Shown one piece after another: positions 1 through 46,633 of a stretch of DNA of 64,000 bases. The stretch covers positions 1,135,886 to 1,199,885 of the forward strand of contig NZ_CP116808.1 in NCBI RefSeq assembly GCF_028464065.1, read 5' to 3'. Position 1 is the first letter of the stretch; every line of letters starts with the position of its first letter. Under the pieces are notes generated by a model. It made no database searches and was not told the DNA's origin. It saw only the letters and a program-made list of their open reading frames with translations. The translations under genes were made by a program, and so were the position numbers. This stretch comes from Saprospira sp. CCB-QB6. Its GTDB lineage: Bacteria; Bacteroidota; Bacteroidia; Chitinophagales; Saprospiraceae.

Positions 1-3000
1 AGCAGTCCCCAGCAACAAGATGTTTATCAAGGTAAGCTCTTTCGCTTAGCCAACTTTAGCCAACTCCCCAATGCCAAAGAACGGGCTGCCATGAATGAAC
101 AAGGCATTGTATTTTTGGAATACCTGCCTAAAAATACCTACCTACTGGCTATTCCTGCTCGCCTGAATATTCAGGACCTACAAAACTTTGGAATTCGTGG
201 GCTCAAACCCTTAGCTCCCAAACATAAAATGGATGCCCGTTTAGACGAGCGTCCATTTCCTATTTGGGCCATGCAGGGACAGAAACTCAAGCTCTTTGTC
301 CAAATTCATCAAAATATTAACTGGGAACAGTCTTTGGCCCAACTCCAAGCAGAAGGCTACCCCCTACTCTTTGTCAACCCAATGAGTAGAACGCTAGTCA
401 CTAGCTTAGCCCCTAGCCAAATTGAAAACTTGGCCAAAAAACCCTTTGTTCGCTACCTAGACCTTCCTTCAGATCCAGGGCAACCCGAATCAGATGATGG
501 ACGTAACCTTCACCGCGCCAACCTTATCGATGGCGATTATTATGGTGCCTACGCCTATAATGGAGAAGGCGTAGCTGTCGCTATTAACGATGATGGATTT
601 GTCGGCCCCCATATCGACTTTAAAGGTCGAGCCAACCAACAAGATGTAGCTGGCGATATGACCGGAACACATGGCGATATGACCGTGGGTATTGTTGGTG
701 GAGCAGGAAACCTCAATCCAATCATGCGAGGAATGGCGCCCAATGCCTACCTACACGTGCGCCAATATAATAGCAGCCTCCCTGCTACGGTTGCCCTTCA
801 CCAAGATAGCTCCGTTATGGTTTTCTCTAGCTCTTACTCCAACGGATGTAATGCTGGTTATACCACACTTACCCGTACCGTAGACCAAGAAATTTATAAT
901 AACCCCAACCTCATCCAAGTTTTCTCTGGCGGAAACAGCAATGGTAGCGACTGTGGCTACGGCGCTGGCAGTCAATGGGGAAACATTACAGGAGGACATA
1001 AAATGGGGAAAAATGTTCTAGCAACAGCTAATCTCCATAATGATGATGACCTAGCGACTAGTAGTAGCCGTGGCCCCGCTTCAGACGGTCGGATCAAACC
1101 AGATATCGCAGCACATGGTCAAGGCCATGTCTCTACCGACCCAGATAATAGCTATGCCGTTGGTGGTGGAACCTCTGCGGCAGCCCCTGGCATCGCAGGA
1201 GTGCTTACTCAACTACATCAAGCTTATCGCAGCATGAATGCAGGCACTGACGCCCCCTCTGCCCTACTCAAAGCAGCTTTGCTCAACTCTGCCAATGATT
1301 TGGGTAATGATGGTCCTGACTTTTCTTTTGGTTGGGGTAAGGTTAATGCTTATCGCGCCCTCAAAACCCTAGAAGATAATCGTTATATCAATGGAGCAGT
1401 TGGACAAGCAGCTAGCGCAACACATACCATCAACATTCCAGCAAATGTGCGCCGTGCTAAAATTATGATCTACTGGCATGATAAAGAAGCCTCTACTTCT
1501 TCTACCTTAGCACTTGTCAATAACCTAGACCTTAGTGTTAATGACCCTAGCAACACGACACACTTCCCTTGGATCCTAGATCCAGCCCCCCTTGCCTCTA
1601 CCCTAGCTCTCCCTGCAACTAAAGGTGTAGATACCCTTAACAATGTGGAACAAGTGGCTATCGACAACCCTAGCGCAGGAACTTACACGATTAACGTAGC
1701 AGGCACAAGCGTTCCTTTTGGTCCTCAAAACTACTATATCGTCTATGAATTCCTAACCGATGAGATTATGCTTACCTATCCCGTTGGTGGCGAAGGCCTT
1801 ATTCCTGGAACTCAAGACCGAATCCATTGGGATGCCTATGGAACAACAAACAGCTTCAATATTGAGTACAGTGCCGACAATGGCAACGCTTGGAGTACTG
1901 TACAAACTAATGTAGCTGGTAGCGCTCGATTTATTGATTGGACCGTTCCCGCTACAGTAACTGGGCAAGGACTTATCCGCATTACAAGAGGAACAAATAC
2001 AGACCTTAGCGATGCCAATTTTTCTATCCTTGAAACACCTCAAAATATTCGCATCGTAGCCGTTTGTACTTCTGCCAATACCGTCCGCATCAATTGGGAT
2101 GCCGTAGCTGGCGCCACCGAATACGATGTCTTTGTTCTTGGTGCAACTCATATGGATTCTATTGGCTCTACAGCAACCCTAAGCTTTGATGTTCCCGTAA
2201 ACAATATCAATGATGATCAGTGGTTCTCTGTTCGGGCTAAAGGTCCCAACGGGCTTAGAGGCCGACGAGCTATTGCCGTGCAAATGCAAGGAGGCAATAG
2301 CGGTAATTCAGCCTGTATGATGGATTGTAGCTTGACAGATGACGCTGGAATCAATCAAGTTTTTAGCCCTCAAGCCCTTCAACAAAGTTGTAATGGAGAT
2401 ACACTAGCCGTAGACGTAGAACTAACCAACATCAGTAACCAAGCACAAAGCAATTTTGAAGTCTACTACCAACTAGACAACCAAACTGTTGTTACTGATA
2501 CCTTTACAGGTACACTAGCCGCCGGTAGCCTCACTAATTTTAGCTTTAGTCAACCTGTAGTCTTAGCCGGCCCCGGCCAATATCAATTTAAGGTATGGAC
2601 CAATATCCCTGGAGATGGCGCCCGCTGTAATGATACCATTAGTATGACCATTGACTTTAATACAACGATTAGCAGCTTCCCTTATATCGAAGACTTTGAA
2701 TCAGGCGTCTTCCCTCCAGCAAATTCTTACCTAGAAAATAATGACGCAAGCCTTAGCTGGCGAGAGGATAATGTGACGGGCAGCAATGGCAGCCCTACTA
2801 CCGCTATTAGAGTCAATAACTTTTCCTATAATGCCGCTGGCGAAGAAGATGTCCTTGGCTTTTTTAGCATGGACCTCACCAATGCCCCCGCTGCCCAACT
2901 GAGCTTTGACGTAGCCTATGCCGCATACAGCAGCTCTCTATACGATGGCCTACGCGTAGAAGTCTCTACCGATTGCGGACAAACTTACAGCCAACTCTAC

Positions 3001-4572
3001 TTTAAGGAAAATCTCAACCTAGCTACAGCAGGTACGCAAACTGGGCAATTTAGCCCCTCTGATGCTAGTGACTGGCGCACAGAAATTATTGATCTTGCCC
3101 CTTATGTTGGCAATAATGTAGCTTTCCGCTTTGTCAATATTTGTGGCTTTGGCAACGACCTTTTTCTAGATAATATCAACATTAACACAGTCAACAACGT
3201 CCCTACAACAGCCTTTAATGTAAATAGCACAACTAGCTGTAGCGGCGCTATCTCTTTTACAGACCAATCTACTAATAGCCCCACTTCTTGGAGCTGGGAT
3301 TTTGGCGATGGCAATACCTCTAACCAACAAAACCCCAACCACCAATACGCTAGCAATGGTAGCTATACCGTGCAGCTAATTACTAGCAATCAATTGGGAA
3401 GCGATACACTTACCCAAACCAACTACATAACCGTTAACTTCCCTAGCGCCCCCTCTGCACCAACTACAGCTAATGGCTGTGTTGGACAAGCTATCGCCCT
3501 TAGCGCCTCTAGCACTAACGATATCTGGTGGTCCGACGCAAATGGCAACCTCCTCTTTGAAGGCCAAAATTATAATGCGATCCCCTCAACTACAAGTAGT
3601 AGCTATTTGGTCCAAAGTGTAATTACTTCTCCTTCTCAACAAGTTGGCCCTGCTACCCCCACAACTGTAGGCCCTGGTGGATATTTCACGGGTACTCAAT
3701 ACCTCAATTTCGACGCTTCTGGCCCCATTCGCATCGTCTCTGTTTTGGTCGATGCCAATACTGCTGGAAATAGAACAATCGAGCTCTATGATGCCATCAA
3801 TGGCGGAGGCACCCTCATCCAATCAACTACCGTAAATGTTCCCAGCGGCCAAAGTCGAGTTACACTTAATTTTGTACTACCCGCTGCAGGCACTTACAGC
3901 ATCGGAGGAACGGCCTTTGATTTCTACAGAAATAGTAGTGGAGCCAACTACCCCTATAGTGTCGCCGGCCTAATTAGCATTACTGGCTCTTCTTTTAACT
4001 CCGATTATTACTATTTCTTCTATGATTGGGAGATCCAAGATGCCCCCTGCCGCTCTGCTGCCGTTACGGTAAATGTTTCCGCCGATCAAGCTAACTTTAA
4101 CCATGACGCAAATGCTAGTACCCTTGCCGTTAACTTCACGGACCAATCCGCTGGAGCCAATAACTGGAACTGGGACTTTGGCGATGGCAATAGCGCTAGC
4201 CAACAAAATCCTAGCTATACCTATGCTGCCGCTGGCGTTTATGTCGTTCAACTGACGATTAACGGCAATTGTAGCTTTACCGATACAGTCACTGTCGGAC
4301 CTACCGCTACCCAAAGCTGGAGCAATGGCACAGATGTTCGCCTCCTCCCCAACCCTAGCCTTGGCCAAAGCCAACTGCAACTCTCTAGCGCACTTAGCCA
4401 AAACTTGAGCATCCAACTACTCTCCCTAGATGGCCGCCTCTTGAAAAGCTATGAACTGCCCGCCGGCCAAAACAAACTAGATCTTAATGAAAATCTAGCC
4501 CCCGGCTTCTACTTCTTGCGCCTCCAAAAGGCAGAAGAACAACTTACCCTCAAATGGATTATCCAAGACTAA
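1..4572 (+). CDS. Subtilisin-like serine peptidase (S8) with PKD domains and T9SS C-terminal sorting domain; 5' end probably outside window (frame open to position 1)
   Basis: S8 Asp/His/Ser motifs (AINDDGF, GTHGDMTVG, GTSAAAPGIAGV); two PKD-like WSWDFGDGNTS / WNWDFGDGNSAS modules; C-terminal LLPNPSLGQ...YFLRLQ T9SS tail. No stop between position 1 and the ATG at 91. Confidence 0.85.
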   Translation, partial: SSPQQQDVYQGKLFRLANFSQLPNAKERAAMNEQGIVFLEYLPKNTYLLAIPARLNIQDLQNFGIRGLKPLAPKHKMDARLDERPFPIWAMQGQKLKLFVQIHQNINWEQSLAQLQAEGYPLLFVNPMSRTLVTSLAPSQIENLAKKPFVRYLDLPSDPGQPESDDGRNLHRANLIDGDYYGAYAYNGEGVAVAINDDGFVGPHIDFKGRANQQDVAGDMTGTHGDMTVGIVGGAGNLNPIMRGMAPNAYLHVRQYNSSLPATVALHQDSSVMVFSSSYSNGCNAGYTTLTRTVDQEIYNNPNLIQVFSGGNSNGSDCGYGAGSQWGNITGGHKMGKNVLATANLHNDDDLATSSSRGPASDGRIKPDIAAHGQGHVSTDPDNSYAVGGGTSAAAPGIAGVLTQLHQAYRSMNAGTDAPSALLKAALLNSANDLGNDGPDFSFGWGKVNAYRALKTLEDNRYINGAVGQAASATHTINIPANVRRAKIMIYWHDKEASTSSTLALVNNLDLSVNDPSNTTHFPWILDPAPLASTLALPATKGVDTLNNVEQVAIDNPSAGTYTINVAGTSVPFGPQNYYIVYEFLTDEIMLTYPVGGEGLIPGTQDRIHWDAYGTTNSFNIEYSADNGNAWSTVQTNVAGSARFIDWTVPATVTGQGLIRITRGTNTDLSDANFSILETPQNIRIVAVCTSANTVRINWDAVAGATEYDVFVLGATHMDSIGSTATLSFDVPVNNINDDQWFSVRAKGPNGLRGRRAIAVQMQGGNSGNSACMMDCSLTDDAGINQVFSPQALQQSCNGDTLAVDVELTNISNQAQSNFEVYYQLDNQTVVTDTFTGTLAAGSLTNFSFSQPVVLAGPGQYQFKVWTNIPGDGARCNDTISMTIDFNTTISSFPYIEDFESGVFPPANSYLENNDASLSWREDNVTGSNGSPTTAIRVNNFSYNAAGEEDVLGFFSMDLTNAPAAQLSFDVAYAAYSSSLYDGLRVEVSTDCGQTYSQLYFKENLNLATAGTQTGQFSPSDASDWRTEIIDLAPYVGNNVAFRFVNICGFGNDLFLDNININTVNNVPTTAFNVNSTTSCSGAISFTDQSTNSPTSWSWDFGDGNTSNQQNPNHQYASNGSYTVQLITSNQLGSDTLTQTNYITVNFPSAPSAPTTANGCVGQAIALSASSTNDIWWSDANGNLLFEGQNYNAIPSTTSSSYLVQSVITSPSQQVGPATPTTVGPGGYFTGTQYLNFDASGPIRIVSVLVDANTAGNRTIELYDAINGGGTLIQSTTVNVPSGQSRVTLNFVLPAAGTYSIGGTAFDFYRNSSGANYPYSVAGLISITGSSFNSDYYYFFYDWEIQDAPCRSAAVTVNVSADQANFNHDANASTLAVNFTDQSAGANNWNWDFGDGNSASQQNPSYTYAAAGVYVVQLTINGNCSFTDTVTVGPTATQSWSNGTDVRLLPNPSLGQSQLQLSSALSQNLSIQLLSLDGRLLKSYELPAGQNKLDLNENLAPGFYFLRLQKAEEQLTLKWIIQD

Positions 4573-4603: not shown

Positions 4604-4637
4604 AGAGACCTTCTTTTCAGGAGGTCTCTTTTTTTTG
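4604..4637 (+). terminator. Rho-independent terminator of S8 peptidase gene
   Basis: Hairpin agagacc-ttcttttcagg-aggtctct followed by a T8 run that merges into the TTTTGGGG start of element copy 1. Confidence 0.7.
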
Positions 4638-4754
4638 GGGCCTGCCGCCTTTGGCGGCCGGGCCCTTGCAGGGCTCGCAGGTCTGCTCGGCCCTTCAGCC
4701 CTTCGGGCTTCGGTCTGGCCTGCGGCCACCCTTTCAGGCCCCTAGGCCAAATGG
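4633..4754 (+). repeat. GC-rich structured interspersed element, copy 1 (subfamily II, core variant GCTCGCAGGTCTGCTCGGCC)
   Basis: TTTTGGGGCC...gccgcctttggcggc hairpin...GCTCGCAGGTCTGCTCGGCC...GGTCTGGCC...CCTAGGCCAAATGG; shares modules with about 22 other copies in the window. Confidence 0.9.
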
Positions 4755-4811
4755 GAACCCTTCGCTTCTGCCCCCCTTTGATAAAAAAAGGCTACTTTAA
4801 GCTATTCTCTC

Positions 4812-5070
4812 TATAGATATATGCCATCCCTATCTTAGGATAACTAGTTTTTGCGCAGATATATACCTTCCCTGCCTTTTGATGACTAGTTTTTGCGCAG
4901 ATATATGCCTTCCCTGCCTTTTGATCGCTAGTTTTTACGCAGATATATGCCTTCCCTGCCTTTTGATGACTAGTTTTTACGCAGATATATGCCTTCCCTG
5001 CCTTTTGATCGCTAGTTTTTGCACAGATATATGCCTTCCCTGCCTTTTGATCGCTAGTTTTTGCAGAGCA
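4812..5070. repeat. 42-bp tandem repeat array (about 5.5 units; unit ctagtttttgcgcagatatatgccttccctgccttttgatga) plus one degenerate leading unit
   Basis: ctag recurs at 4844, 4886, 4928, 4970, 5012, 5054 (period 42); units differ only at 2-3 positions (ga/cg, g/a). Not a multiple of 3; ORF 4879..5079 is its translation. Confidence 0.9.
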
Positions 5071-5106
5071 AATAGCTAAAAGAAACTTTTCTCTTTAGGC
5101 TAGGAC

Positions 5107-5136
5107 CTAAAAAGGGCCAGCTAAATAGCTGGCCCT
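5107..5136 (-). terminator. Rho-independent terminator (minus strand) downstream of DoxX gene and element copy 2
   Basis: Perfect hairpin agggccagct-aaat-agctggccct, followed on the minus strand by TTTTT. Confidence 0.65.
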
Positions 5137-5152
5137 AAATCTTATGGATCTA

Positions 5153-5297
5153 GCAGGGCGCAAAGCGCCCGCAGGCTGAGGGATGAGAGCAGGGCCGCCC
5201 TAGGCGGCAGCCCCAGGCGCTTTAGCGCCGCAGGGCCGAGCGAACAGCGAGCTGCGGACAGCCCGACCCGCCCGCAGGGCGGGGCAGCCCCAAAAAA
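5153..5297 (-). repeat. GC-rich structured interspersed element, copy 2 (subfamily I)
   Basis: Reverse orientation: ...gctgagggatg...GGCCGAGCGAACAGCGAGC...cccgacccgcccgcagggcggggcagccccAAAA; lies between the DoxX stop and its terminator. Confidence 0.9.
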
Positions 5298-5310
5298 TAA
5301 TCCTCCAATC

Positions 5311-6333
5311 CTAAAGCGATAACTCCCAACTCAAACCCGAAATATCGACTAATCTTAGGGCTTTGGCCTTAGCCGCCAGCCTTTTGCTAAGGGGCAGACT
5401 CAGGCGAGCCTTGGCCCCCAAGGGAACCACTAGGCTATGTGCCCCCGCCTTGATTTTAGCGGGATAAGCATTCTGAATTTGTTGGTCGGGCAGGCTAGAA
5501 AGCACCTTTTGGTCCCAGGTCTTTAGAACTTGCCCTCTCTCATCTAACAATTCAATCTGGATGATAAAGGAGCCATAGACATCTACGCCCTCTATGCGAT
5601 AGAGCTCAAAGCTCAGACTATCGGCCTGAAGAAGCGGGGCTGATAGGGCCAATTTGGGCTTAACAGATTTGTTGTGTAGTTGCCCCCATAGGCCCGAATG
5701 AAAATATTGATTGGTATAAAGGGCGAGGGCCAAGATGAGCAAACTGCTCCATAAAACGGGCTTTTGGAAGCGTTCCCAGCGGATAGGGCCAGAGCTCCAG
5801 AACGACAGGTAACTGCTCCAGCCCCAATGCTCCAAAGCATAATGATCTAGGCTATAGCGGCCTCCGCCCGTCATAAATATACTGGCCCCAGCAGATACCC
5901 CCAAAATGCCAATTTGCCATTCATCTAGGCAGGTCGTGCCCAACCAGCCCGAACCCAGCAAAATGCCTAGGGCAAGGCCCAAAACGGCCAGACTCATCAG
6001 GCGACTTAAAAAGCCAAGCATAAAAAAGAGGCCCACAACACCCTCTACCAAAGTAAAAAAGAGCATGGCCCACCAGAGATAGGCGGGATGTTCGAGCAAA
6101 AACTCGATGATTGGGCCAATGCCTAGGGCCTGCGGCAAAAAATGGTTAAACTTGATGCCGATATAATTAGCCGCATCGGGGTCTAGCTTATTAGAGAGAA
6201 TCAGGCGGCGCCAAAAAGCCGAGAAATAGGTCCACCCCACCACTAGGCGGAGGCCCAAATTAAAGACGCCCAATAATTTATAAGAAAGGAACTGCTGCCC
6301 ATCTTGGGGCAAGGCTGTTGTTTGATTTGACAT
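5311..6333 (-). CDS. DoxX family membrane protein with about 190-aa C-terminal extension
   Basis: N-terminal DoxX-like TM region (LRLVVGWTYFSAFWRRL; several hydrophobic helices); C-terminal part unassigned. Confidence 0.65.
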   Translation of the reverse strand: MSNQTTALPQDGQQFLSYKLLGVFNLGLRLVVGWTYFSAFWRRLILSNKLDPDAANYIGIKFNHFLPQALGIGPIIEFLLEHPAYLWWAMLFFTLVEGVVGLFFMLGFLSRLMSLAVLGLALGILLGSGWLGTTCLDEWQIGILGVSAGASIFMTGGGRYSLDHYALEHWGWSSYLSFWSSGPIRWERFQKPVLWSSLLILALALYTNQYFHSGLWGQLHNKSVKPKLALSAPLLQADSLSFELYRIEGVDVYGSFIIQIELLDERGQVLKTWDQKVLSSLPDQQIQNAYPAKIKAGAHSLVVPLGAKARLSLPLSKRLAAKAKALRLVDISGLSWELSL

Positions 6334-8170: not shown

Positions 8171-8212
8171 AATATTATAAAGTTCTTGTTTTTCGGTTGG
8201 GGGTTGGGGATA

Positions 8213-8360
8213 TTTTGGGGCTGCCCCGGCCAAGGGCCGGGTCGGGCTGTATCGGGGCTCGCTGTTCGCTCGGCCCTGCGCGGGCTTTGCCCGCTGGGTC
8301 TGCGGCTTCGCCGCCCCCCTTTCCATCCCTCAGCCGAGGCGCTTTGCGCCTGCTCGCTGC
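8213..8360 (+). repeat. GC-rich structured interspersed element, copy 4 (subfamily I)
   Basis: TTTTGGGGCTGCCCCggccaagggccgggTCGGGCTGTatcggGGCTCGCTGTTCGCTCGGCCCTGCGcgggctttgcccgc...CCATCCCTCAGCC; preceded by a partial duplicate ggttgggggttgggga. Confidence 0.9.
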
Positions 8361-9230: not shown

Positions 9231-12200
9231 TTATTTCTGCAAAATAATGCGTTCGGTCAATACTTGCTCACCCACGATAATGCGAGCGAGATAAACGCCA
9301 GCGCTATAATTGGCTAGGTTAATTTGGTAGTTATGGTTACGGCCCAATTGGCTGGGGAAGCGTTGTACTTCTTGGCCATTGAGGTTAAAGATCGTCAATT
9401 GTACTTCTTCTTCCTTGGCTAGTTCAAGTTGAAGCTGAGCAACAGCTTGCGTAGGATTGGGGAAGAGGTTCAATTGGTTAAGGCCTTCAACTCCATTGAT
9501 GTTAGTGGGTTGAGTATAAGCCACAGTGATAATTTGGCTAGTAGAGCAACCTACTCGATCGTAGACAGTAACTTCATACTGGCCAGAAACGAGGTTATTG
9601 ATGCTAGCGGTAGTGTCTCCAGTATTCCAAACGATATAGTAAGGACCAACACCGCCAGAGACAGAAATATCGATAGAGCCAGCGAAGTCGCTGCTTTCGT
9701 TTACGATATTATCTACATTGATTGTCAAAGCGGGGTTAGCGCTAATTGTGTAGCTTTCGTCATAAGTACAGCCGATAGCGTCGGTAACGGTTACGCTATA
9801 AGTTTCGCCATCGAGGACGTTGCTTAGAGCGGCAGTAGTTGCGCCATTGCTCCAGTTGTAAGTATAGGGAGCTGTACCACCTTGTACGCCTGCTTGGAGG
9901 GTACCAGCATTGCCACAGTCTACACCATTAGCCACAAAGTTAAAGTTGATCGGGGCTGGGCCATTAACGGGATAAGTTTCGGTAAACTCACAGCCGTTAT
10001 CGTCGGTAATTGTTACGGTATAAGTTCCAACATCTAGTCCAGAGATATCTTCAGTAGTAGCGCCAGTGGTCCAATCAAAAGAGAAAGGAGCGGTACCGCC
10101 AGTTAGGCTGATATCAACAGCACCGTTACCGTCCCGTCCGCAGCTAAGTGTGCTCAATTGAGCGCTAACTGTGGGGGCGGGAAAGAAAGAAATTTGGATA
10201 GAGTCGGTCAAAACACAACCATTTCCATCAGTCATGGTCACGGCGTATTGGCCTTCCACGCTAGTAATAATTCCGGGCACAGTTTCGCCAGTACTCCAGA
10301 GATAGCTTTGAGCGCCAGGTGCTGCGGCCAATCCAATAGGACTGCTTTCACAGATAGTTGCATCGGGGCCAAGGTCTAGGTTAGCGGTAGCGACAACTGT
10401 AGCCGTAACGGGGGTACGTGTTGTACCACCAGCACAAGAAGTGATCTCTGCATAATAAGTAGTAGATACTTGAAGAGCAGGAGTAGTAAATACGGGATCG
10501 GTAGACAAGAGTGTACCGCCAGTAGCTTGATCGTACCAGCTAATTCCGCCAGCGGGCATAGAGGTCAAGCTAGCGCTATTTCCTACACAAGTAGTGTCTC
10601 CCATGAAAGTGGGGTTAGGATTAGCGATGCTCACACAAACGTTTGCGGTATCGTTGCTTGCGTTAGCGTCGGCAGCTAGCTGTGTAATAATTTCGAAGCA
10701 ATAGTTTCCGCCACCAGTAGTGTTAAAGGTACCTACAGTGAGAGTATCTTGAGCGGCAGAGGCTAGTGGACCTGCGTAAGTAGCGTTAAAGGTTTGCGTA
10801 CCGTTGGGGCCGTTCAAATTTACGGTTACGGGTACATTGCTGATGCTGTTGCTCCCATTATTAGATAGCGTAATCACTAAAACTTCATTGGCGTTTTCGC
10901 AGGTTCCTACGCTAGGTGCGTCAACACCAACGGCTACGGCATCATCCGTAAAGATAGTAATCTCATCGGCTCCGATATCGGGCAAGCTTGTCCCTGCAGA
11001 GGGGCGAGTTTCTCCATCGATATCAGTGGCAACACCTACAAGGGCTCCAGCGGCGTTGAGTTGGATGTTTTGAACGTGTAGGTCAGTGTAGTTAGCGACA
11101 AACTGAGGGTCGATATCCAAAGAGTTGGCATCATAGCCATAGGGGCCAGAGGCCTGCCAAGTAGCCAAGTCATAAGTAGTTGTACCATAATCGATATGGT
11201 TAGTTCCGCTAGCCTTATAGAATACGTTATTATCCATAGCGGCCAAGGGCAGGGCATCTGCAGATTCGAAAGCGTAGGCAGAAGCATTATCGGCCACAAA
11301 GATATTATTACGAATATCTAGGTCGGTGGGGTCATTCATATAAAGACCAGAAGCGGAAGAGCTTCCAGAACCTACTAGTGTATTGTGCCAGATATCTACA
11401 TATTGGATATCATCCATATAGAGTGCATCATCACTCTTAGAGAAGACAGTATTGTTGATAATCTGTCCACGGCGAGTGATAGCGCCATCGAAGTTACCAT
11501 CAGAGATATAGATACCGTAATCTTCTGTCACTACACGGTTGTAGTTAATCGTAAAGTCCATAATATCGAAGCAATAGATTGCATCACTGAAAGTAGAGCC
11601 CACAGTTGTTTCAATCGTATTGTAGTTAATCTCGATAGAATCTTGGTCGTCGAGATAGATACCATAGTCATCAAAATCTACAATTGTATTGTTGATGATA
11701 CGGTTGTATTTGTTGCGAGCGGCGCTAGCGCCTTCGATGTGAATTCCCATTTCACCACCAGTGATATAGTTATTCTCAATAAGAGTATAATTAGCATTAT
11801 TACCCTCTGTATAGTCATTGGTATATTCTCCTGAAATAACCACAGGAATCACATCAAAGACAGAAGTTTGGAAAGTCGCTGAGATGTAGTTATTTCGGAT
11901 GCTATTATGATCTGCACCATTGGTAAAATGTACAGCCCAACCATCATCTCCAGAAGCGGCAGTAGTCGCAATATTGAAGTTTTGTACCGTTACATAATCG
12001 ACTTCATCAAACAACACAGTAGCATATTGGCTATTAGAAGCGTCATGTGTAAGGAAAGTAGTTGCGGTATCGCCACCATCAAAAGTAATAGTATTCGTCA
12101 TACTTGCGCCAGTGATTTCTCCGACTAGGGCTAGTTGTTGCCCAGCATAGACGCCTGGAGCGACTTGGAAAGTGACGGCACCAGCCACACCACATTGGTA

Positions 12201-14888
12201 AAGGCGAGCAACGGCATCAGTAATAGCGGGAAAGTCAGAAGTGGGTGTACCCACAGTATAAGTACCAACTAGACCTTGGCAAAGCTCGGCATAGAGCGTA
12301 TCATTGCTCATACGGTCATCGATTTGGCCGTTGGGCATGCTGGTCCAGAAAACAAAATCTACATTTTGTCCAGCGGGGAAGTTGATATTACTTAGGGTAA
12401 CGTCTACTTCTTGCTGAGGTCCAACAGGAGCTCCAGTGTAGCCAATTGTTCCTTGAGTGGCACCGTTATAGGTCCAATCAATATTAAAAGTCGTTAAATC
12501 TTGTACACCAAAATTGCGTACACGTACAGTGACGGCTTGAAAGCCTGAAGTTAAAGGAGAGGTAGGGTTCACTAAAGCGACAACACCTGCGTCATTATCT
12601 TTAGGACGATATTCATCTGCTCCAATGTCTACAGTTGTTGCGCCTGTAAATGGACGAGATTCTCCGTCAATATCCACAGTAACGCCTAAGGTATTATCTC
12701 CTGCATCATTGGCAAAGGCTCCATCTACGTGTAGATCAGTTGGACCAAAAAATACAGGATCAGCTTCCACAGAGTTAGTACCATGGCCGAAAGTGTTACT
12801 ATTTTGCCAAGTCACTACATCTACATAGTTAGATGTGCCGAACTGAATAAAGTTTGTTCCAGCGTTAAAGCGGAAGAACAAGTTGTGATCCATATCGGTT
12901 AGGGCCAAAGCATCAGCATGGCGGAAAACATAACCGAAGTCTGCAGTAAAGATATTGTTCACTACATTTACATCTAGCAAGTCATTACCATAGAATGAAG
13001 CACTAGTAGTACTCGTGCTTTTGTTCCAGGTACTATTATGGAAAACATCAGTCTCATTCACATCATCTAGATAAATGGCATAAGTACCTTCAGCGATAGA
13101 CATGTTATTGATAATTTCTCCACGACGAGTAGGCGTAGCATCAAAGTTTCCGTCAGAAACATAGATACCATAATCTGGGGCATACACATTATTGCTATTG
13201 ATACGGAAGTTCATCAAGTCAAAGCAATAAATTGCATCAGCATAGGTATAGCGAAGGTCATTCACGCTGTTTCCAATAATGTCTACAGAATCTTGGTCAT
13301 CCATATAAATACCATAGTCATCTACACCTGAGATCGTATTATTCACAAAGCGGTTACCTATGTTGGGGGTTGCGCTAGCCCCCTCAAAGCGGATTCCATA
13401 GTCTCCTCCAGAAATAGCGTTACCTTGAATAAGGTTATAGTTTGCATTATCGCCTTCTGTATAGTTATTGATATAGCTTCCTGAAGCTAAAATCCCAATT
13501 ACATCAAAAATACCTGATGTATAAGGCATTGTAATTTGGTTATTGAGGATTTGGTTATTATTGGCCGAATTAGTCAAGAATACCCCCCAAATATCTGTAG
13601 ATCCAGTACTTTGAATACCTAAGTTTTGGATGCGTATCCACTCTACTCCATCAAGAGCAACGGTAGCATTACCATCTGTGCCAGAACCATCATGAGTTAC
13701 AATAGTAGTGGCAGGGTTTCCACCATCAAAGGTTACCGTATTAGTTGCAGAAGCTCCTACAATAGGGCCAACCAAAGCAATGTTTTCTGTATAAGTACCA
13801 GGCTGAATATTAAACGTAACTGGACCACTAATTCCGCAGCTATACATCACAGCTACAGCATCTCCAATTGTGGCAAAATCGGCAGCAGCACCTCCTATAG
13901 TGTAGCTACCATTTAGGCTAGTACAAAATGTCAGCGTCAAAGTATCATTGCCAGGAAAGTTATCTGTATTGCCGTTGGGCAAAGAAGTCCAAGCTCTAAT
14001 TGTCGTTGAACCAGTAGCAAAGTTGTAGTTACCTAAGTTCACATTTACGCTAGCCTGAGGTGCTACTAAAGTGCTATAATTTACCTGCGTTTGCATCACC
14101 CCATTCATTTCCCAGTCAATATTTACTGAGTTTAGGGCATTAGTTCCAAAGTTAGTCAACGTCACATCTACTGCTTGGTTACCAGCGATACCCGGTACTG
14201 TTGGTGCGACCAAAGCTGTAATTCCAGCATTATCTGGAACTGGAGCTGTTCCTGTAATACTGAAATCATCTAGGGTGAATCCGTCAGAACCTGTAGTACT
14301 AGTTGCTTCAAAGTTGTCGGACCAACCAAAACGCACTTGAAAAGTACTACTGACCAATTGACTATTGGCGGCTAAAATCGCATCAATATCAAATCCTGTT
14401 TCATTGAAGTAAGTCCCTAAAGTAGTATTTGCAGTCCAATCATAGATCTCAATCCAAGCATCAGTATTGCTACCACGGATCCAAACGCGATCTTCAGGGT
14501 GCACCTCATCACCATGATCCATCCACCAGAAGCTAAGTTCTAGATCATTAGATCCAAGGTAGGGGGATAAATCCCCTGTAAAGGTTAAATAAGAAATTCC
14601 TAAGGTACCACTTACTTCTGCATCTAATGTCATTGCTCGGCTACCTCCATGATAAAAGGCAGAGCCAGCATCTGTCCGAAGACGACAGTTCGTGGTATTT
14701 TCCTCAAATTCCCATTGGTATCCTGTACCTGTAAGGCCAGGAACAGGGTTGGTCGTGGCTACATAAGTACCCGCTGTGGCGCCCTCAAAATCCTCATTAT
14801 AAGGGAGGCTTAGCTGAGCCTGCGAAGAGGTCCAACTAGCCAAAAACAGCGCTACACAGTAACCTAATTGTGTTAACGTTTTTCGCAT
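9231..14888 (-). CDS. Giant T9SS-secreted surface protein: signal peptide, two about 540-aa internally duplicated parallel beta-helix modules, SprB-type repeats, T9SS C-terminal sorting domain
   Basis: N-terminal MRKTLTQLGYCVALFLASWTSSQAQ; duplicated blocks (IRAWTSLPNGNTDNF...TVTFDGG vs FVFWTSMPNGQIDDR...TITFDGG); PbH1-like NNxI repeats; SprB-like CGxxGxG...GGTAPYxYxWSNG repeats; C-terminal LFPNPTQAV...VYLARI tail. Confidence 0.85.
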   Translation of the reverse strand: MRKTLTQLGYCVALFLASWTSSQAQLSLPYNEDFEGATAGTYVATTNPVPGLTGTGYQWEFEENTTNCRLRTDAGSAFYHGGSRAMTLDAEVSGTLGISYLTFTGDLSPYLGSNDLELSFWWMDHGDEVHPEDRVWIRGSNTDAWIEIYDWTANTTLGTYFNETGFDIDAILAANSQLVSSTFQVRFGWSDNFEATSTTGSDGFTLDDFSITGTAPVPDNAGITALVAPTVPGIAGNQAVDVTLTNFGTNALNSVNIDWEMNGVMQTQVNYSTLVAPQASVNVNLGNYNFATGSTTIRAWTSLPNGNTDNFPGNDTLTLTFCTSLNGSYTIGGAAADFATIGDAVAVMYSCGISGPVTFNIQPGTYTENIALVGPIVGASATNTVTFDGGNPATTIVTHDGSGTDGNATVALDGVEWIRIQNLGIQSTGSTDIWGVFLTNSANNNQILNNQITMPYTSGIFDVIGILASGSYINNYTEGDNANYNLIQGNAISGGDYGIRFEGASATPNIGNRFVNNTISGVDDYGIYMDDQDSVDIIGNSVNDLRYTYADAIYCFDLMNFRINSNNVYAPDYGIYVSDGNFDATPTRRGEIINNMSIAEGTYAIYLDDVNETDVFHNSTWNKSTSTTSASFYGNDLLDVNVVNNIFTADFGYVFRHADALALTDMDHNLFFRFNAGTNFIQFGTSNYVDVVTWQNSNTFGHGTNSVEADPVFFGPTDLHVDGAFANDAGDNTLGVTVDIDGESRPFTGATTVDIGADEYRPKDNDAGVVALVNPTSPLTSGFQAVTVRVRNFGVQDLTTFNIDWTYNGATQGTIGYTGAPVGPQQEVDVTLSNINFPAGQNVDFVFWTSMPNGQIDDRMSNDTLYAELCQGLVGTYTVGTPTSDFPAITDAVARLYQCGVAGAVTFQVAPGVYAGQQLALVGEITGASMTNTITFDGGDTATTFLTHDASNSQYATVLFDEVDYVTVQNFNIATTAASGDDGWAVHFTNGADHNSIRNNYISATFQTSVFDVIPVVISGEYTNDYTEGNNANYTLIENNYITGGEMGIHIEGASAARNKYNRIINNTIVDFDDYGIYLDDQDSIEINYNTIETTVGSTFSDAIYCFDIMDFTINYNRVVTEDYGIYISDGNFDGAITRRGQIINNTVFSKSDDALYMDDIQYVDIWHNTLVGSGSSSASGLYMNDPTDLDIRNNIFVADNASAYAFESADALPLAAMDNNVFYKASGTNHIDYGTTTYDLATWQASGPYGYDANSLDIDPQFVANYTDLHVQNIQLNAAGALVGVATDIDGETRPSAGTSLPDIGADEITIFTDDAVAVGVDAPSVGTCENANEVLVITLSNNGSNSISNVPVTVNLNGPNGTQTFNATYAGPLASAAQDTLTVGTFNTTGGGNYCFEIITQLAADANASNDTANVCVSIANPNPTFMGDTTCVGNSASLTSMPAGGISWYDQATGGTLLSTDPVFTTPALQVSTTYYAEITSCAGGTTRTPVTATVVATANLDLGPDATICESSPIGLAAAPGAQSYLWSTGETVPGIITSVEGQYAVTMTDGNGCVLTDSIQISFFPAPTVSAQLSTLSCGRDGNGAVDISLTGGTAPFSFDWTTGATTEDISGLDVGTYTVTITDDNGCEFTETYPVNGPAPINFNFVANGVDCGNAGTLQAGVQGGTAPYTYNWSNGATTAALSNVLDGETYSVTVTDAIGCTYDESYTISANPALTINVDNIVNESSDFAGSIDISVSGGVGPYYIVWNTGDTTASINNLVSGQYEVTVYDRVGCSTSQIITVAYTQPTNINGVEGLNQLNLFPNPTQAVAQLQLELAKEEEVQLTIFNLNGQEVQRFPSQLGRNHNYQINLANYSAGVYLARIIVGEQVLTERIILQK

Positions 14889-15409: not shown

Positions 15410-16804
15410 ATGTCTGCTCCGCCCAAAAAAGCGAAAAGAGTTATCGCTTGGTTTCGCCTAGATTTGCGACTACATGATAATGAAATGCTCACCGAAGCCC
15501 TGAAGGCTGGCGAGGAGGTGTACCCCGTCTATGTCTTTGATGAACGGACATTTAAGGGCAAAACGGAAGCAGGCTTTGCCAAAACGGGCCCCAGACGCTG
15601 CCAATTTATTATTGAGGCTGTGGCCGACCTGCGCCAACAACTGCAAGCCCTTGGCATTGATCTCATTATCCGTACAGGAAAGGCCGAAGAAGAGATTTTT
15701 CAGCTGGCCCAAGAACTCAAAACAGGCTGGGTGTTTTGCAACCGAGAAAAGACTTATGAGGAAGAAGTTCAACAAAATCGCTTAGAAGAAAAACTTTGGA
15801 CGATTGGGCAAGAAATTCGGTTTTTTAGAGGCAAAATGCTCTACTACACCCAAGATCTCCCCTTCCCTATTGCCCATACACCCGATGTTTTTACTCAGTT
15901 TCGCAAGGAAGTTGAAAAGCTAACGCCTGTTCGAGAACCGCTCCCCAAACCCCAAAGTTTTGTTGCCTGGAGCCACCGATTAGCCCTGGGAGAACTTCCA
16001 CAATTAAGCGATTTTGGCTGGGAAACGCCCCCCAAGGACGAACGTAGCGTGTTGCATTTTAAAGGCGGAGAAACTCAAGGTCTCAAACGCCTACATTATT
16101 ACCTCTGGGAATCCGATGCGATCGCTAAATATAAAGAGACCCGCAACGGCCTGCTGGGCCCCGATTACTCTAGCAAATTCTCCCCCTGGCTCGCCCAAGG
16201 CTGCCTCTCCCCCAAACAAATTTATGCCGAGCTGAAACGCTACGAAAACGAACGGAAAAAGAATAAATCAACCTATTGGCTCTATTTTGAACTGCTCTGG
16301 CGCGATTTCTTCCGCCTTATGGGCAAAAAATATGGCCACCAAATTTTCTTATACACCGGACTCCGTGGCAAGAAGAAAAAATCACTCTCCAATAATATGC
16401 AGGCTTTTGAAAATTGGATGCTTGGCCAAACTGGGCAACCTTTTATCGATGCAAACATGAGAGAATTAGCCAAAACTGGCTTTATGTCCAACCGCGGCCG
16501 CCAAAATGTCGCTAGCTACCTGATCAACGACCTCAAAGTCAATTGGCAACTAGGTGCCGAATATTTCGAATCGACCCTAATTGACTATGATGTGACCAGC
16601 AACTGGGTCAATTGGCTCTACATCGCTGGCGTTGGCAACGACCCCAGAGAAGATCGCTATTTCAACCCCATCAGCCAAAGTAAACGCTACGATCCCGAAG
16701 GCGAATATATCAAATATTGGCTGCCCGAACTCCAAGAGGTGGATAGCCGCGATATCCACGAGCTGGATAGCCGCCAATTTATAACCAAAGAACCAAAGCA
16801 ATAA
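15410..16804 (+). CDS. Cryptochrome DASH / photolyase family protein
   Basis: VIAWFRLDLRLHDNEML N-terminal photolyase motif, FAD-binding C-terminal region (WREFF-like, NWxWxAG motifs); 464 aa. Confidence 0.9.
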   Translation: MSAPPKKAKRVIAWFRLDLRLHDNEMLTEALKAGEEVYPVYVFDERTFKGKTEAGFAKTGPRRCQFIIEAVADLRQQLQALGIDLIIRTGKAEEEIFQLAQELKTGWVFCNREKTYEEEVQQNRLEEKLWTIGQEIRFFRGKMLYYTQDLPFPIAHTPDVFTQFRKEVEKLTPVREPLPKPQSFVAWSHRLALGELPQLSDFGWETPPKDERSVLHFKGGETQGLKRLHYYLWESDAIAKYKETRNGLLGPDYSSKFSPWLAQGCLSPKQIYAELKRYENERKKNKSTYWLYFELLWRDFFRLMGKKYGHQIFLYTGLRGKKKKSLSNNMQAFENWMLGQTGQPFIDANMRELAKTGFMSNRGRQNVASYLINDLKVNWQLGAEYFESTLIDYDVTSNWVNWLYIAGVGNDPREDRYFNPISQSKRYDPEGEYIKYWLPELQEVDSRDIHELDSRQFITKEPKQ

Positions 16805-26711: not shown

Positions 26712-26716
26712 TTTTA

Positions 26717-26850
26717 TTTTGGGGCCTCCGCAGCAAAGCTGCGGCGCTACGTTCCGGGGCTCGCTATTCGCTCGGCCCTTCGCAAAAAACAAGTTTTTGC
26801 TCGGTCTGGCCTACGGCCACCCCTACACATCGCTAGGCCAATTGGACCAA
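26717..26850 (+). repeat. GC-rich structured interspersed element, copy 11 (subfamily II)
   Basis: TTTTGGGGCCTCCGCagcaaagctgcgGCGCTACGTTCCGGGGCTCGCTATTCGCTCGGCC...GGTCTGGCCtacggccaCCCCTACACATCGCTAGGCCAATTGGACCAA. Confidence 0.9.
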
Positions 26851-26898
26851 CTGCGCTTTCACCAAAAAGAAACAAGACCTCTTAAAATACTTATCATC

Positions 26899-30734: not shown

Positions 30735-33266
30735 ATGGGAGACAGCCGCGAACGTGATTTAGTCCTCGCCCCCAACGAGTACGCCTTTATTTCTGACCAA
30801 ACCAAGGGAAATGTCATTACTTATGTAGGGCCTTATAAAACCAGTATGGCTAATACGGACAAGCCCGTTTTTTTCAATAAAAAGACGAAAGCCTTTGACA
30901 TTTGCGATTTGGATGGCTCTATTCAGACCTTTTGCACGGCCCCAGAAGGCTGGTATATTATCCTGAAAAATCCTGCGATTGATAATAAACCGCCCCAAAT
31001 TGGGACCTCCAACCAGCTTTCTTCTTTGCAGATTGGGCGCAAGGTCAATTTACCTGGTCCCAACTTTTTTGCGCTTTGGCCGGGCCAGATGGCAGAAGTT
31101 TTAGAGGGCCATCATTTGCGCTCCAATGAGTATTTATTGGTCCGTGTGTATGAAGAGGAACAAGCACGAGCCAATTGGGATAATGCCGTAATTACGCCCC
31201 AACATACTCAACCCGAAGGGCTAGAAGACGAGCAGCAACCCAAAGATAGCATTGATGCCAACCGCCTAAGTATGGGCCAATTGCATGTGATAAAAGGAAC
31301 CAATGTTTCCTTTTATATTCCGCCCACAGGGGTTGAAGTGGTTCGAGACAAAAAAGGGAATTATGTCCGCTCTGCAGTGACTTTAGAGCGCCTAGAGTAT
31401 TGCATTTTGCTCGATGAAGATGGCAATAAACGCTATATACAAGGACCCGATGTGGTCTTTCCTCGCCCCACCGAACGCTTTATTGAGAAAAGTGGCAGCC
31501 GAAAATTTAAGGCGATTGAACTAGATGAAAATAGCGGGATTTATGTCAAAATCATTGCCCCCTATACCGAAAATGGCCAAAGCTATAAGGTAGGCGATGA
31601 GCTCTTTATTACGGGCCGAGAACAAATGATTTATTTTCCCCGCCCAGAGCAAGCCCTAATCAAATATGGCGAACAAGAGATCTATCAAGCGGTCGCTATT
31701 CCCCCCGGCGAGGGCCGCTATGTCTTGAATAGAAAGAGCGGAAAAATCAGCCTGCAAAAAGGGCCTGCCATGTTTTTGGCCGACCCCAGAGAGGAAATGA
31801 TTTTGCGCCGCATCCTTAGCCCCAAACAGGTAGAGCTTTGGTTCCCAGGCAATCAAGAAGCCTTGCAATACAACCTCCAACTCCAAGAACTCTCTAAACA
31901 ACAGCAGGTCCGCCTGCGAAAAGCCTCAAAGAAGCGGAATAAACTCAATTTGCCGCCTATGGCCCAACAACAACAGGCCCTTATTGATATGGATTTCTCG
32001 GAGGAGAATGAAGAAGAAGGCGAAAGCGTCTATGAAGGCATCGTCAGCAATTCCTTTTCTCGAAGCCGACAACCCCAAAACAATAATAGTCTGGTCCTCG
32101 ATAGCAAATATGAAGGTGCAGTTACCATCGATGCCTGGACCGGCTATGCTGTTTTGGTCACTAGCAAATTAGGCGACCGCAAAGTGGTGGTGGGCCCAAG
32201 CACTTACCTGCTCGATTATGACGAGGTTCTACAAGGCATTGAGCTCTCTACAGGCACCCCAAAATCTGATAATCAACTGATGCGCACCGTCTATCTCCGC
32301 ATCCTCAATAATAAGGTTTCTGATTTGGTGAGAGTGGAAACTGCCGACTTCTGCGAGCTGGATATCCACCTTTCTTATCGGGTCAATTTTACTGGCGATC
32401 CCGAAAAATGGTTTAATGTAGAGAATTATGTCAAGTTCCTGACCGACCACCTCCGCTCAGTCCTCCGCAATGCCATTAAGCAATATAAATTGGCCGATTT
32501 TTATGCCGAGGGAATTGCCGAATTGCGCAATATCGTCCTCGGTCCCCGAGCCGAAGGCGAGGAACATGACAGCCGCCGCCCTGGCCGACTATTTACCGAA
32601 AATGGTATGCATATCTATGAATTGGAGGTCCTTGATATAGAGATTCTAGACGAGGAAATCCAAGAGTTGCTCTTTGCCAGTAAACACCAAGATATTCGCA
32701 GCCAACTAGAGCTAGACAATAAGCGAAAAGAACTACTCTATAGCCAAGAGACGGAAGAAATGGCCCAGAAAATCGCCGCTAGCCGCTCCAAAACCAAACA
32801 GTTCGCCCTAGAACTCCAAGAAGCCGAAGAAAAACAGGCCCAAATGCTCAAACTGGCTAGCCAAGCCGCCCGCATTGACCTAGAACGCCTAGAACTCACG
32901 GCCCAAATGGAAATGCAAGAAAAAGCCCTAGCCGTTGCTCGCCTACAACGCCAAGATGAGGAAGAAGCTGGCCTACTCCAACTCGAGCTCAAAAAAGGTG
33001 CCCTCGAACAACGCCTCAAAGAATTGGAGGGAGAAGTACTGGCTGTGGTCCAAAAAGCAGAAGCTGTCAGCCCCGATCTGATTGCTGCCCTACAAGCTTT
33101 TGGCGACAAAGCCCTGGCCGAAAAAATGGCCGAAAGCATGGCTCCACTCTCTATTATCGGCGGCAAAAGTATTGTCGAGGTCTTTGGCAATCTGCTGGCC
33201 GGCAGTCCCCTCTCCTATCTACTAGATAAAAAAGGAGAAACTAAAGATCCTGGTTTAGAAGAGTAA
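30735..33266 (+). CDS. Major vault protein (MVP) homolog
   Basis: N-terminal MVP-type repeats (LVLAPNEYAFISDQTKGNVITYVGP); LDENSGIYVKI matches the MVP LDENEGIYVQD segment; ETAD shoulder motif; long C-terminal coiled-coil cap-helix region; 843 aa. Confidence 0.85.
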   Translation: MGDSRERDLVLAPNEYAFISDQTKGNVITYVGPYKTSMANTDKPVFFNKKTKAFDICDLDGSIQTFCTAPEGWYIILKNPAIDNKPPQIGTSNQLSSLQIGRKVNLPGPNFFALWPGQMAEVLEGHHLRSNEYLLVRVYEEEQARANWDNAVITPQHTQPEGLEDEQQPKDSIDANRLSMGQLHVIKGTNVSFYIPPTGVEVVRDKKGNYVRSAVTLERLEYCILLDEDGNKRYIQGPDVVFPRPTERFIEKSGSRKFKAIELDENSGIYVKIIAPYTENGQSYKVGDELFITGREQMIYFPRPEQALIKYGEQEIYQAVAIPPGEGRYVLNRKSGKISLQKGPAMFLADPREEMILRRILSPKQVELWFPGNQEALQYNLQLQELSKQQQVRLRKASKKRNKLNLPPMAQQQQALIDMDFSEENEEEGESVYEGIVSNSFSRSRQPQNNNSLVLDSKYEGAVTIDAWTGYAVLVTSKLGDRKVVVGPSTYLLDYDEVLQGIELSTGTPKSDNQLMRTVYLRILNNKVSDLVRVETADFCELDIHLSYRVNFTGDPEKWFNVENYVKFLTDHLRSVLRNAIKQYKLADFYAEGIAELRNIVLGPRAEGEEHDSRRPGRLFTENGMHIYELEVLDIEILDEEIQELLFASKHQDIRSQLELDNKRKELLYSQETEEMAQKIAASRSKTKQFALELQEAEEKQAQMLKLASQAARIDLERLELTAQMEMQEKALAVARLQRQDEEEAGLLQLELKKGALEQRLKELEGEVLAVVQKAEAVSPDLIAALQAFGDKALAEKMAESMAPLSIIGGKSIVEVFGNLLAGSPLSYLLDKKGETKDPGLEE

Positions 33267-40440: not shown

Positions 40441-40545
40441 AATTATTATAGCAAATAAAGAGGGGGCATGCTAGTCCTCTAGAGGGGGTCCCCGACCCCT
40501 CTGCAGGGGGTACTCTACCCCTCAGGGGGATTCTTTTACCTCCAA
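40441..40545. other. Cluster of four G5/C4-5 tract mini-hairpins (cctcTAGAgggggtcccc, cccctCTGCAggggg, cccctcaggggg)
   Basis: Seen directly; four GGGGG runs each paired with a nearby CCCC(T) run around palindromic cores (TCTAGA, CTGCAG). Confidence 0.7.
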
Positions 40546-40559
40546 GCGAGGACCTATAG

Positions 40560-40775
40560 AAATCATCAGGAGGACCTCATGAAATCCTCGGGAGGATGTC
40601 AATAAATCCTCTTGACCATTTTACAAGATCCTCGGGAGGACGTTAATAGATCCTCTTGAGCATCTTGCAAGCTCCTCGGGAGGACGTCAATAAATCCTCT
40701 TGACCATTTTACAAGCTCCTCAGGAGGACCTCCTTAAATCATCTTGATGAGGTATAGAGGTCCTCTTGAGGAGGT
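40560..40775. repeat. Tandem array of four about 44-bp units centred on the palindrome TCCTC-G/A-GGAGGA, plus flanking degenerate copies
   Basis: tcctcgggagga at 40585, 40629, 40674; tcctcaggagga at 40717 (period 43-45); unit = tcctcgggaggaCGTcaataaatcctcttgaccattttacaag; flanking degenerate tcatcaggaggacctc (40565) and ggtcctcttgaggagg (40757). Confidence 0.85.
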
Positions 40776-40947
40776 AGTGCCCCCCTAAAGGGAAATTAGC
40801 CTTTACCCAAGGTTCAACAGCTAGCAAAATGGCTAAATTTTATCGTCTAATGCGAACAATTTAGCCTAAAAACCTGAAAAATACTAAAAAATAGTAGCTA
40901 AAACGTATTTTTTATTGGTTATAACTTGCATTATTAAATTGTTTACC

Positions 40948-45929: not shown

Positions 45930-46586
45930 ATGAAATTTTTTGTGGATACGGCCAATCTGGCCCAAATTCAAGAAGCCGCCGACCTTGGCGTTTTGGATGG
46001 TGTAACGACCAACCCCTCTCTAATGGCCAAAGAAGGCATCAAAGGCGAGGAAGCCGTGCGCCAACACTACCTAGACATCTGCAATATTGTGGACGGTCCC
46101 GTAAGTGCCGAAGTGATTGCCACTGACTTTGAGGGCATGATCAAAGAAGGCGAAGCCCTAGCCGCCCTACATCCCAATATCGTCGTGAAGGTCCCTATGA
46201 TTGAGGATGGCGTGAAAGCCCTTCGCTACTTTAGCGATAAAGGCATCAAAACTAACTGTACGCTCGTCTTTTCGGCTGGACAAGCAATTTTGGCCGCCAA
46301 AGCAGGCGCTACCTACGTTTCTCCCTTTATTGGCCGCATTGATGACATTAACTGGAATGGCGTGGAATTGATCGAACAGATTGTCCATATCTACCAAAAC
46401 TTTGCTTTCCGCACTCAGGTTTTGGCCGCTTCTATCCGCAACCCCTTGCATATTGTACAATGTGCAGAGCTCGGCGCAGATGTGGTCACTTGCCCCCTTT
46501 CTGCCATGAAAGGTATGCTCAAGCACCCCCTTACAGATATCGGTTTGCAAAAGTTTTTGGCCGATCACGCTAAAAATAATGGCTAG
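45930..46586 (+). CDS. Fructose-6-phosphate aldolase / transaldolase family (TalC/MipB type 3B)
   Basis: [31 protein letters not shown], catalytic-Lys region VVKVP; 218 aa. Confidence 0.85.
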
Positions 46587-46604
46587 TTAAAGTCCATGAA
46601 GATA

Positions 46605-46633
46605 AAGGCTACTTTTCAGTAGCCTTTTTTTTT
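46605..46633 (+). terminator. Rho-independent terminator of tal/fsa gene
   Basis: aaggctact-tttc-agtagcctt plus T9 that merges into the TTTTGGGG of element copy 17. Confidence 0.75.

Follow-up and report, generated by a model that had tools for sequence, protein, structure and literature searches.

The stretch analysed here, called the window, comprises 64,000 nucleotides (64 kb) of Saprospira sp. CCB-QB6 DNA, with a GC content of 46% and a DNA identity of ~82% to Saprospira grandis DSM 2844; array coordinates refer to it. We focus on locus 1, the region between an S8 peptidase gene and a DoxD-DoxA fusion gene (DoxDA), where a tandem array of 42-bp units (array 1) lies between two GC-rich arms of opposite orientation. 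The right-hand gene stands where the initial annotation put it, but it encodes a DoxD-DoxA fusion and not a plain DoxX. This fusion protein and the methyltransferase encoded at 47399-48574 are each 100% identical to their CCB-QB6 counterparts. The features of locus 1 are:

91-4572, plus strand: S8 peptidase gene, with PKD domains and a type IX secretion system (T9SS) tail; left neighbour of locus 1
4604-4637, plus strand: intrinsic terminator of the S8 gene, hairpin 4604-4629 followed by T8
4631-4757, plus strand: left arm, nhmmer score 70; its TTTTGGGGCC end faces the S8 gene; same position in six genomes/contigs
4758-4814: AT-rich leader of the lineage-specific centre, without counterpart in Lewin, DSM 2844, CP110854 and L136
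4815-5066: array 1, six 42-bp units of a variable-number tandem repeat (VNTR); unit 1 degenerate, units 3-6 near-identical
5067-5112: centre tail, in which AGAGCAAATAGCTAAAAG is an imperfect inverted copy of CTTTAAGCTATTCTCTCT in the leader
5136-5113, minus strand: intrinsic terminator hairpin, then T5
5137-5297 (nhmmer 5168-5297), minus strand: right arm, of the other subfamily and with an inner hairpin; its TTTTGGGGCT end faces the DoxDA stop codon
5311-6333, minus strand: DoxDA gene, right neighbour of locus 1

Tandem Repeats Finder (TRF) places array 1 at 4815-5064 with a period of 42, 6.0 copies, 91% matches and a score of 395, near the 5.5 copies at 4812-5070 first described, and a second repeat finder returned the same registers, including 42 nt for array 1. 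The units are near-identical and vary at 2-3 positions, as had been claimed. Highly identical units of 10-100 bp arranged head to tail in this way are those of a VNTR or minisatellite. They abut without spacers, and array 1 is therefore not a CRISPR array, which has unique spacers between repeats. The AGAGCAAATAGCTAAAAG/CTTTAAGCTATTCTCTCT inversion around the array, read by eye, is 18 nt long and weak, with no exact 9-nt seed. Two terminators bracket the array and point into it. The T-run of the S8 terminator merges into the start of the left arm, and the same order of terminator and arm is found in orthologs. The minus-strand hairpin at 5113-5136 is likely the end of the DoxDA transcript, and it is retained in genomes without array 1.

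We compared locus 1 with its orthologs in S. grandis Lewin (L128), DSM 2844 (L130), CP110854 (L132) and a metagenome scaffold (L136). All four keep both arms at the S8/DoxDA locus and lack the 42-bp array. The space between their arms is ~26 nt with a small hairpin, versus ~357 nt in the window, and the minus-strand terminator hairpin is common to three of them, DSM 2844 being without it. The centre in CCB-QB6 is a ~357-bp AT-rich segment (about 4752-5108) that contains array 1. The same segment is present in L134, which is 96.9% identical to the window in DNA, and there it holds 7.0 units instead of 6; the two edge units are common to both, and the interior and 3' units differ. Private variants of array 1 are common to neighbouring units, a pattern that reads as the signature of ongoing gain, loss and homogenisation.

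The same architecture had been reported to recur at 46.6-47.4 kb, and a second array (array 2) indeed lies there between a plus and a minus arm (locus 2):

45930-46586, plus strand: transaldolase gene, left neighbour of locus 2
46604-46627, plus strand: terminator of the transaldolase gene
46629-46796, plus strand: left arm, with an extra internal module
46816-46834: leader hairpin of array 2, CTGGGGGAATTTCCCCCAG
46835-47059: array 2, 5.5 units of 41 bp, each with a GC hairpin TGGGCGTGGCGCCCA and a palindrome TAATCTGCAGATTA
47083-47115, plus strand: 33-nt tail of array 2, CCTATCTTTTTTTTCTGGACCGACCCTACTACA, identical in the non-syntenic DSM 2844 locus L121
47236-47363, minus strand: right arm, 93% identical to L138
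47399-48574, plus strand: THUMP-like methyltransferase gene, right neighbour of locus 2

TRF gives array 2 a period of 41, 5.6 copies and 94% matches at 46830-47059. Convergent terminators, part of the architecture as described, are found at locus 1 but not at locus 2, where the methyltransferase gene is on the plus strand like the transaldolase gene. At L138, both arms of locus 2 enclose an unrelated 115-nt centre and no array. At L003 and the independently assembled L140, array 2 has 2.9 units in a different unit order, versus 5.6 in the window. Both arrays thus differ in copy number between related strains (6 versus 7 for array 1, and 5.6 versus 2.9 or none for array 2), as is typical of VNTRs and as the initial annotation had proposed to check. 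Between genomes, identity is 93% for the right arm of locus 2, 92% for the transaldolase gene and 82% for the methyltransferase gene, so that certain arms are no less conserved than the genes adjoining them. Arms vary by short patches; for example, at the second hairpin of locus 1 the window has AGCCCTTCGGGCT, L134 has GCCAGCTTCGCTGGC and Lewin has GTTTTTCGCTGCGCTCAAAAC. Because both arms are found at the orthologous loci 1 and 2 without the arrays, we conclude that the arms are old and that whole centres are replaced.

The arms are copies of a GC-rich repeat of ~130-160 nt (~66% GC). nhmmer finds 23 copies in the window, about one per 2.8 kb, and every copy is mostly between called genes, as are high-copy intergenic palindromes of the repetitive extragenic palindromic (REP) type. 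DSM 2844 has 173 copies in 528 kb (0.33 per kb), and the overall density is 0.33-0.36 per kb. Further examples in the window are at 8211-8341, 26715-26848 and 52821-52955. The repeat starts with TTTTGGGGCY; at its other end, one subfamily has CATCGCTAGGCC and the other has CCATCCCTCAGCC. More than 120 genome chunks match a 21-nt core of the repeat, the majority from S. grandis DSM 2844 and the others from metagenome-assembled genomes of Saprospiraceae and Lewinellaceae, Phaeodactylibacter and Lewinella. A phage origin was rejected, as the repeat core and the array-1 unit are absent from viral contigs. Rfam gave no match in the window at gathering scores, and its E-value mode gave far sub-threshold matches, none of them credible. 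We found no description of the repeat when the literature was searched for Saprospira repeats.

When 19 window copies were folded with RNAalifold, a closed multi-helix fold with 8 helices per arm was obtained. In this fold 97% of cells are paired, versus 82% in shuffles and 32-66% in slid controls, and there are 66 double-change cells versus 23.5 in shuffles, with none of 500 shuffles reaching 66. The long-range helix at columns 57-60/125-128 occurs as GGGG/CCCC, GCAG/CUGC, GUGG/CCAC and CAGG/CCCU, variants whose distribution cuts across the subfamilies. Each arm is thus a structured module complete in itself, as single-stranded DNA or RNA. The two arms of locus 1 are indeed in opposite orientations, as the term inverted element pair implied, but they are not matched terminal inverted repeats, since they belong to different subfamilies and are merely 79-83% complementary over stretches of 18-29 nt. 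Instability of a cruciform or palindrome centre was also considered as the driver at locus 1, and is a weak candidate given the poor complementarity of the arms.

Neighbouring copies of the repeat alternate in orientation in 19 of 22 pairs in the window and in 91 of 107 in DSM 2844 (+- 60, -+ 31, ++ 10, -- 6). Among the 20 gaps shorter than 300 nt in DSM 2844, 17 are convergent (+-), three are tandem (--) and none is divergent (-+), the arrangement of REP inverted dimers. These counts show that the typical unit is a convergent doublet, with the TTTTGGGGC ends outward toward the flanking genes. Repeat orientation is not tied to gene strand, the two agreeing in 12 cases and disagreeing in 10 in the window. 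Housekeeping genes, photolyase, dnaX, hsp20 and tsp among them, occupy the intervals between copies; these are not mobile cassettes. The repeat keeps its positions and orientations when the window is compared with DSM 2844 (L077), and likewise at locus 1 across six genomes/contigs.

Several other arrangements of the repeat were seen. Its orientation alternates even across intervening genes, independent of gene strand. Long-form copies tightly bracket the photolyase gene (15410-16804) as a 206-nt inverted repeat with 93% complementarity (15077-15282/16843-17048). The copies at 29688-29781/33292-33385 are 99% complementary over 94 nt. Between them lie a PIG-L deacetylase gene and the gene for an 843-aa protein (30735-33266), whose major-vault-protein shoulder and repeat domains are unusual in bacteria. 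Four tandem minus-strand genes (204, 180, 180 and 180 aa) lie at 59999-62738 between a convergent repeat pair; DNA repeats link three of them, and 59999-60613, the sole one scanned against Pfam, has a weak match to a T9SS tail. In DSM 2844, near-perfect tandem duplications of part of the repeat are found at L034 3854-4066 and L042 729-926 (91-93 bp x2.2-2.3, 99-100% identity), resembling clusters of bacterial interspersed mosaic elements (BIMEs).

These data bear on whether arms and array form one non-autonomous mobile element, that is, a transposable element of the miniature inverted-repeat type (MITE) with an internal minisatellite, inserted as a unit. The inverted arms have defined outer ends (TTTTGGGGCY), short convergent doublets are typical, some centres recur at several loci along with arms, and the array 2 family (family B) occurs at a different locus in another genome. 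There is also a precedent: BrickBuilt of Porphyromonas gingivalis, in which the same element with a 23-nt unit is found 19 times per genome, is the closest published case of a minisatellite between inverted ends in Bacteroidota (PMC4596501). Like the Saprospira loci, BrickBuilt is intergenic, consists of a spacer-less tandem array of variable copy number, and is bordered by a leader and a tail that end in small inverted repeats. The Saprospira units, however, are 41-45 bp, each array sequence is essentially locus-specific, and the large arms exist independently of arrays. Both arms stand without the array in Lewin, DSM 2844, CP110854, L136 and L138, not present or absent together with it. The locus-1 arms come from different subfamilies, no target-site duplication was seen, and arm positions are conserved across genomes ~82% identical. 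Many copies would be expected of such an element, and no second array-1 unit or flank was found in the window and ~1 Mb of Saprospira loci. We therefore regard insertion as one unit as very unlikely and, for array 1, as largely refuted. The implied claim that the pair and its array are a single unit does not hold: the arms occur at orthologous loci without the array, and the pair is the usual arrangement of a 23-copy repeat, which together suggest that array and flanking pair are separate entities.

The arms can be compared with REP sequences, BIMEs and REP doublets forming hairpins (REPINs). From its copy number, placement and predicted fold, the Saprospira repeat would be of a similar kind: intergenic, GC-rich, structured, abundant and old. 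The REP/BIME/REPIN sequences of Enterobacteria and Pseudomonas are likewise high-copy intergenic palindromes that hold their positions for long, and they form inverted dimers with short spacers (PMC3733652; PMC3337134). REP/BIME clusters can hold tandemly reiterated pieces together with flanking DNA (PMC3733652; PMC3337134). The Saprospira arms differ in being ~130 nt long with a multi-helix covarying fold, where a REP is a single hairpin of 20-40 bp, so they are not single palindromes. Moreover, the Saprospira arrays are not made of arm sequence, and the repeat family spans Saprospiraceae and Lewinellaceae. Subfamily 1 has CTAC after the first hairpin, where REPs have a GTAG/CGTC tag, a resemblance that is merely suggestive.

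The stretch between the arms, judged from these comparisons, appears to be a fast-turnover mosaic centre. Other doublet centres are also assembled from dispersed modules. A ~130-nt centre module with GGGATTCCTTAGGGAATCCC and GGGGTGGGTGGGCGGGG is found between arms at seven DSM 2844 loci with 80-92% identity (L054 2181-2339, L096, L039, L122, L012, L090 and L079), and at L012 it adjoins a 41/82-bp array. Further element-plus-array loci, which the initial annotation had suggested looking for, do exist in DSM 2844: arrays lie between plus and minus copies of the repeat at L012 and L121, and beside a minus copy at L041. L121 carries 41 bp x6.4 homologous to array 2, with 70% identity over 223 nt including the identical 33-nt tail. 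Its flanking genes differ from those of the window, and it was rejected as an ortholog; the array 2 family therefore occupies different loci in different genomes. No close homolog was found for the gene neighbouring L121. A recent expansion, as claimed earlier, is consistent with array 1 being lineage-specific. The array 2 family is older, because a diverged homologous 41-bp array exists in a genome ~82% identical, which also indicates that units evolve in concert. Separately, a motif AATTGGACCA(A/G)AAA was noticed just inside inner arm ends at 26847-26855, 50925-50935, 56458-56468 and 57215-57225, and at L102 3589-3706 two copies of it meet as a palindrome, TGGACCAATTGGTCCA, at the doublet centre.

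TRF also found an array that was absent from the initial annotation, array 3 (44 bp x3.7 at 40584-40747):

40453-40800: array 3 region, palindromic 22-bp units, then 44 bp x3.7; not in a tight doublet

Array 3 has TCCTCnnGAGGA-type palindromes with periods of 22, 44 and 88 bp, preceded by CCCCTC..GAGGGG palindromes, and a relative in DSM 2844 (L088 6931-7223). A candidate promoter, TTGACG-N17-TAAAAT, in every unit of array 3 was dropped because a scan gave one weak site. The arrays are heterogeneous in structure. Array 1 has folding z values of +0.5 and -0.8 on its two strands, versus -6.8 for array 2; strongly palindromic units, with z values from -6.8 to -10.8, make up arrays 2 and 3 as well as the relatives of both in DSM 2844, and these units show compensatory stem changes between genomes. 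They are also heterogeneous in sequence. Pairwise unit alignments join just array 2 with L121, array 3 with L088, and L012 with L041, which leaves at least five unrelated array families, and a common motif or ancestry of all arrays was rejected on this ground. The array periods are nevertheless close to each other or to twice that length: 41, 41, 42, 44, 44, 45 and 83 bp.

The clustering of periods (41, 41, 42, 44, 44 and 45 bp, and 83-88 bp) across at least five unrelated families would be expected if the arrays were protein-binding platforms, on which a nucleoid, boundary or regulatory protein would bind iteron-like or phased sites at intervals of about four helical turns and copy number would tune occupancy. 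The strong dyads in the units of array 2, array 3, L121 and L088 fit this idea, as does family B, which retains AATCTGCA and a hairpin with compensatory stem changes between genomes. On the other hand, neither dyad symmetry nor a fold is seen in array 1 or L013, the families have no motif in common, and periods of 41, 44 and 45 bp do not divide exactly by 10.5. Sister lineages have intact flanking genes at the loci of arrays 1 and 2 but lack the arrays, and array 1 lies between convergent terminators with no promoter to regulate. We therefore consider binding platforms unlikely, although not negligibly so. The earlier proposal of iterons is not supported for array 1, which has no dyad or fold and is flanked by genes for a protease and a quinol oxidase subunit; the window ORFs (open reading frames) scanned against Pfam included none for replication or partition. 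The centromere of the F plasmid, sopC, consists of 12 x 43 bp with an inverted repeat in each unit, at a single locus beside partition genes. Array 2 resembles it in having units of similar length with an inverted repeat. The Saprospira arrays differ in lying at several chromosomal loci with different sequences and no adjacent par genes, and array 1 lacks the dyad. Mycobacterial interspersed repetitive units (MIRUs) of Mycobacterium tuberculosis are VNTRs that, like the Saprospira arrays, are intergenic minisatellites of ~40-100 bp with strain-variable copy number. MIRUs form one related family, often inside operons, and carry small ORFs, whereas the Saprospira arrays are several unrelated families in the centres of repeat doublets.

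Transcription of the arrays, as tandem small RNAs or as promoter or terminator repeats acting on neighbouring genes, was weighed as well. Array 2 is followed by a hairpin and T8 on the plus strand, its tail is conserved in L121, and it lies upstream of the methyltransferase gene, and a search for a canonical promoter of that gene gave none; BrickBuilt, moreover, has promoter activity (PMC4596501). We found, however, no sigma-70-like promoter in locus 1 and no Bacteroidetes -7 box (TAnnTTTG) in locus 1 or locus 2. This box is present upstream of ORF 41046 and is therefore plausibly used in this organism. The array 1 unit shows no dyad symmetry and no folding signal on either strand, Rfam gave no credible match for array 1 or elsewhere, and the terminators bracketing array 1 point inward. 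These observations make transcribed modules highly improbable. Array 1 also appears to be non-coding: its sole ORF is 66 aa with a TTG start, all compared variants between units change the amino acid, and the periods of 41 and 44 bp in sister arrays cannot hold a reading frame. A coding function was rejected accordingly.

One further repeat in the window is of another kind. A 209-nt direct repeat with 71% identity (11627-11835/13277-13485) lies inside a 1885-aa ORF (9231-14888), whose Lewin ortholog has beta-helix, SprB and T9SS-tail domains, and it probably represents internal domain repeats.

We favour, with moderate confidence, the reading that the minisatellite of locus 1 is specific to its lineage, varies in copy number and sits in the mosaic centre of a REP/BIME-like doublet, and that it expands by slippage or unequal exchange and probably has no sequence-specific function. 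Array 1 would grow and shrink by slipped-strand mispairing or unequal exchange between its units. Recombination or gene conversion through the homologous arms may carry centre segments, arrays included, from one doublet to another or replace them, and the hairpin swaps in the arms may likewise come from recombination or gene conversion among the many copies. Array 1 itself would lie in a dead zone between the S8 and DoxDA terminators, where its sequence need not matter.

Several points weigh against this reading. At least five sequence-unrelated Saprospira families share a period of 41-45 bp or twice that, which plain slippage does not predict; under a crude uniform expectation over 25-100 bp, the chance that four further families fall in the same 5-bp band is ~2e-5. 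Common descent with rapid concerted evolution, a binding constraint of four helical turns, or a ruler in the generating mechanism are all possible sources of the shared period. Families B (array 2/L121) and C persist in two genomes ~82% identical, and the identical 33-nt tail of family B hints at constraint or recent transfer. The metagenome contigs are short-read assemblies, but two observations argue against repeat collapse: L134 has more units than the window, and the L003 and L140 assemblies agree. Finally, the compared genomes include no outgroup that polarises gain versus loss of array 1.

A bolder reading, which we hold to be quite improbable, is that Saprospira chromosomes are partitioned by ~1,500 structured GC-rich repeats with convergent doublets as boundary elements, the ~42-bp arrays (about four helical turns) in the doublet centres being either phased platforms for a putative DNA-binding protein or the output of an enzyme that adds repeats in the manner of a ruler. 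If true, it would explain both the single period across unrelated sequences and the cassette-like turnover of centres.

Taken alone, array 1 is an ordinary bacterial VNTR, useful chiefly as a strain-typing marker for Saprospira. Its context is of more interest, as a repeat whose fold is supported by covariation takes up most of the larger gaps between genes in a 4-Mb genome, and its arms stay put across species while their hairpin modules and centres are swapped wholesale. The arrays mark the centres of doublets as places where sequence turns over especially fast. Should the shared ~42-bp period stem from a protein or from an enzymatic ruler, these loci would suggest that Bacteroidota possess an undescribed system for organising chromosomes or generating repeats.

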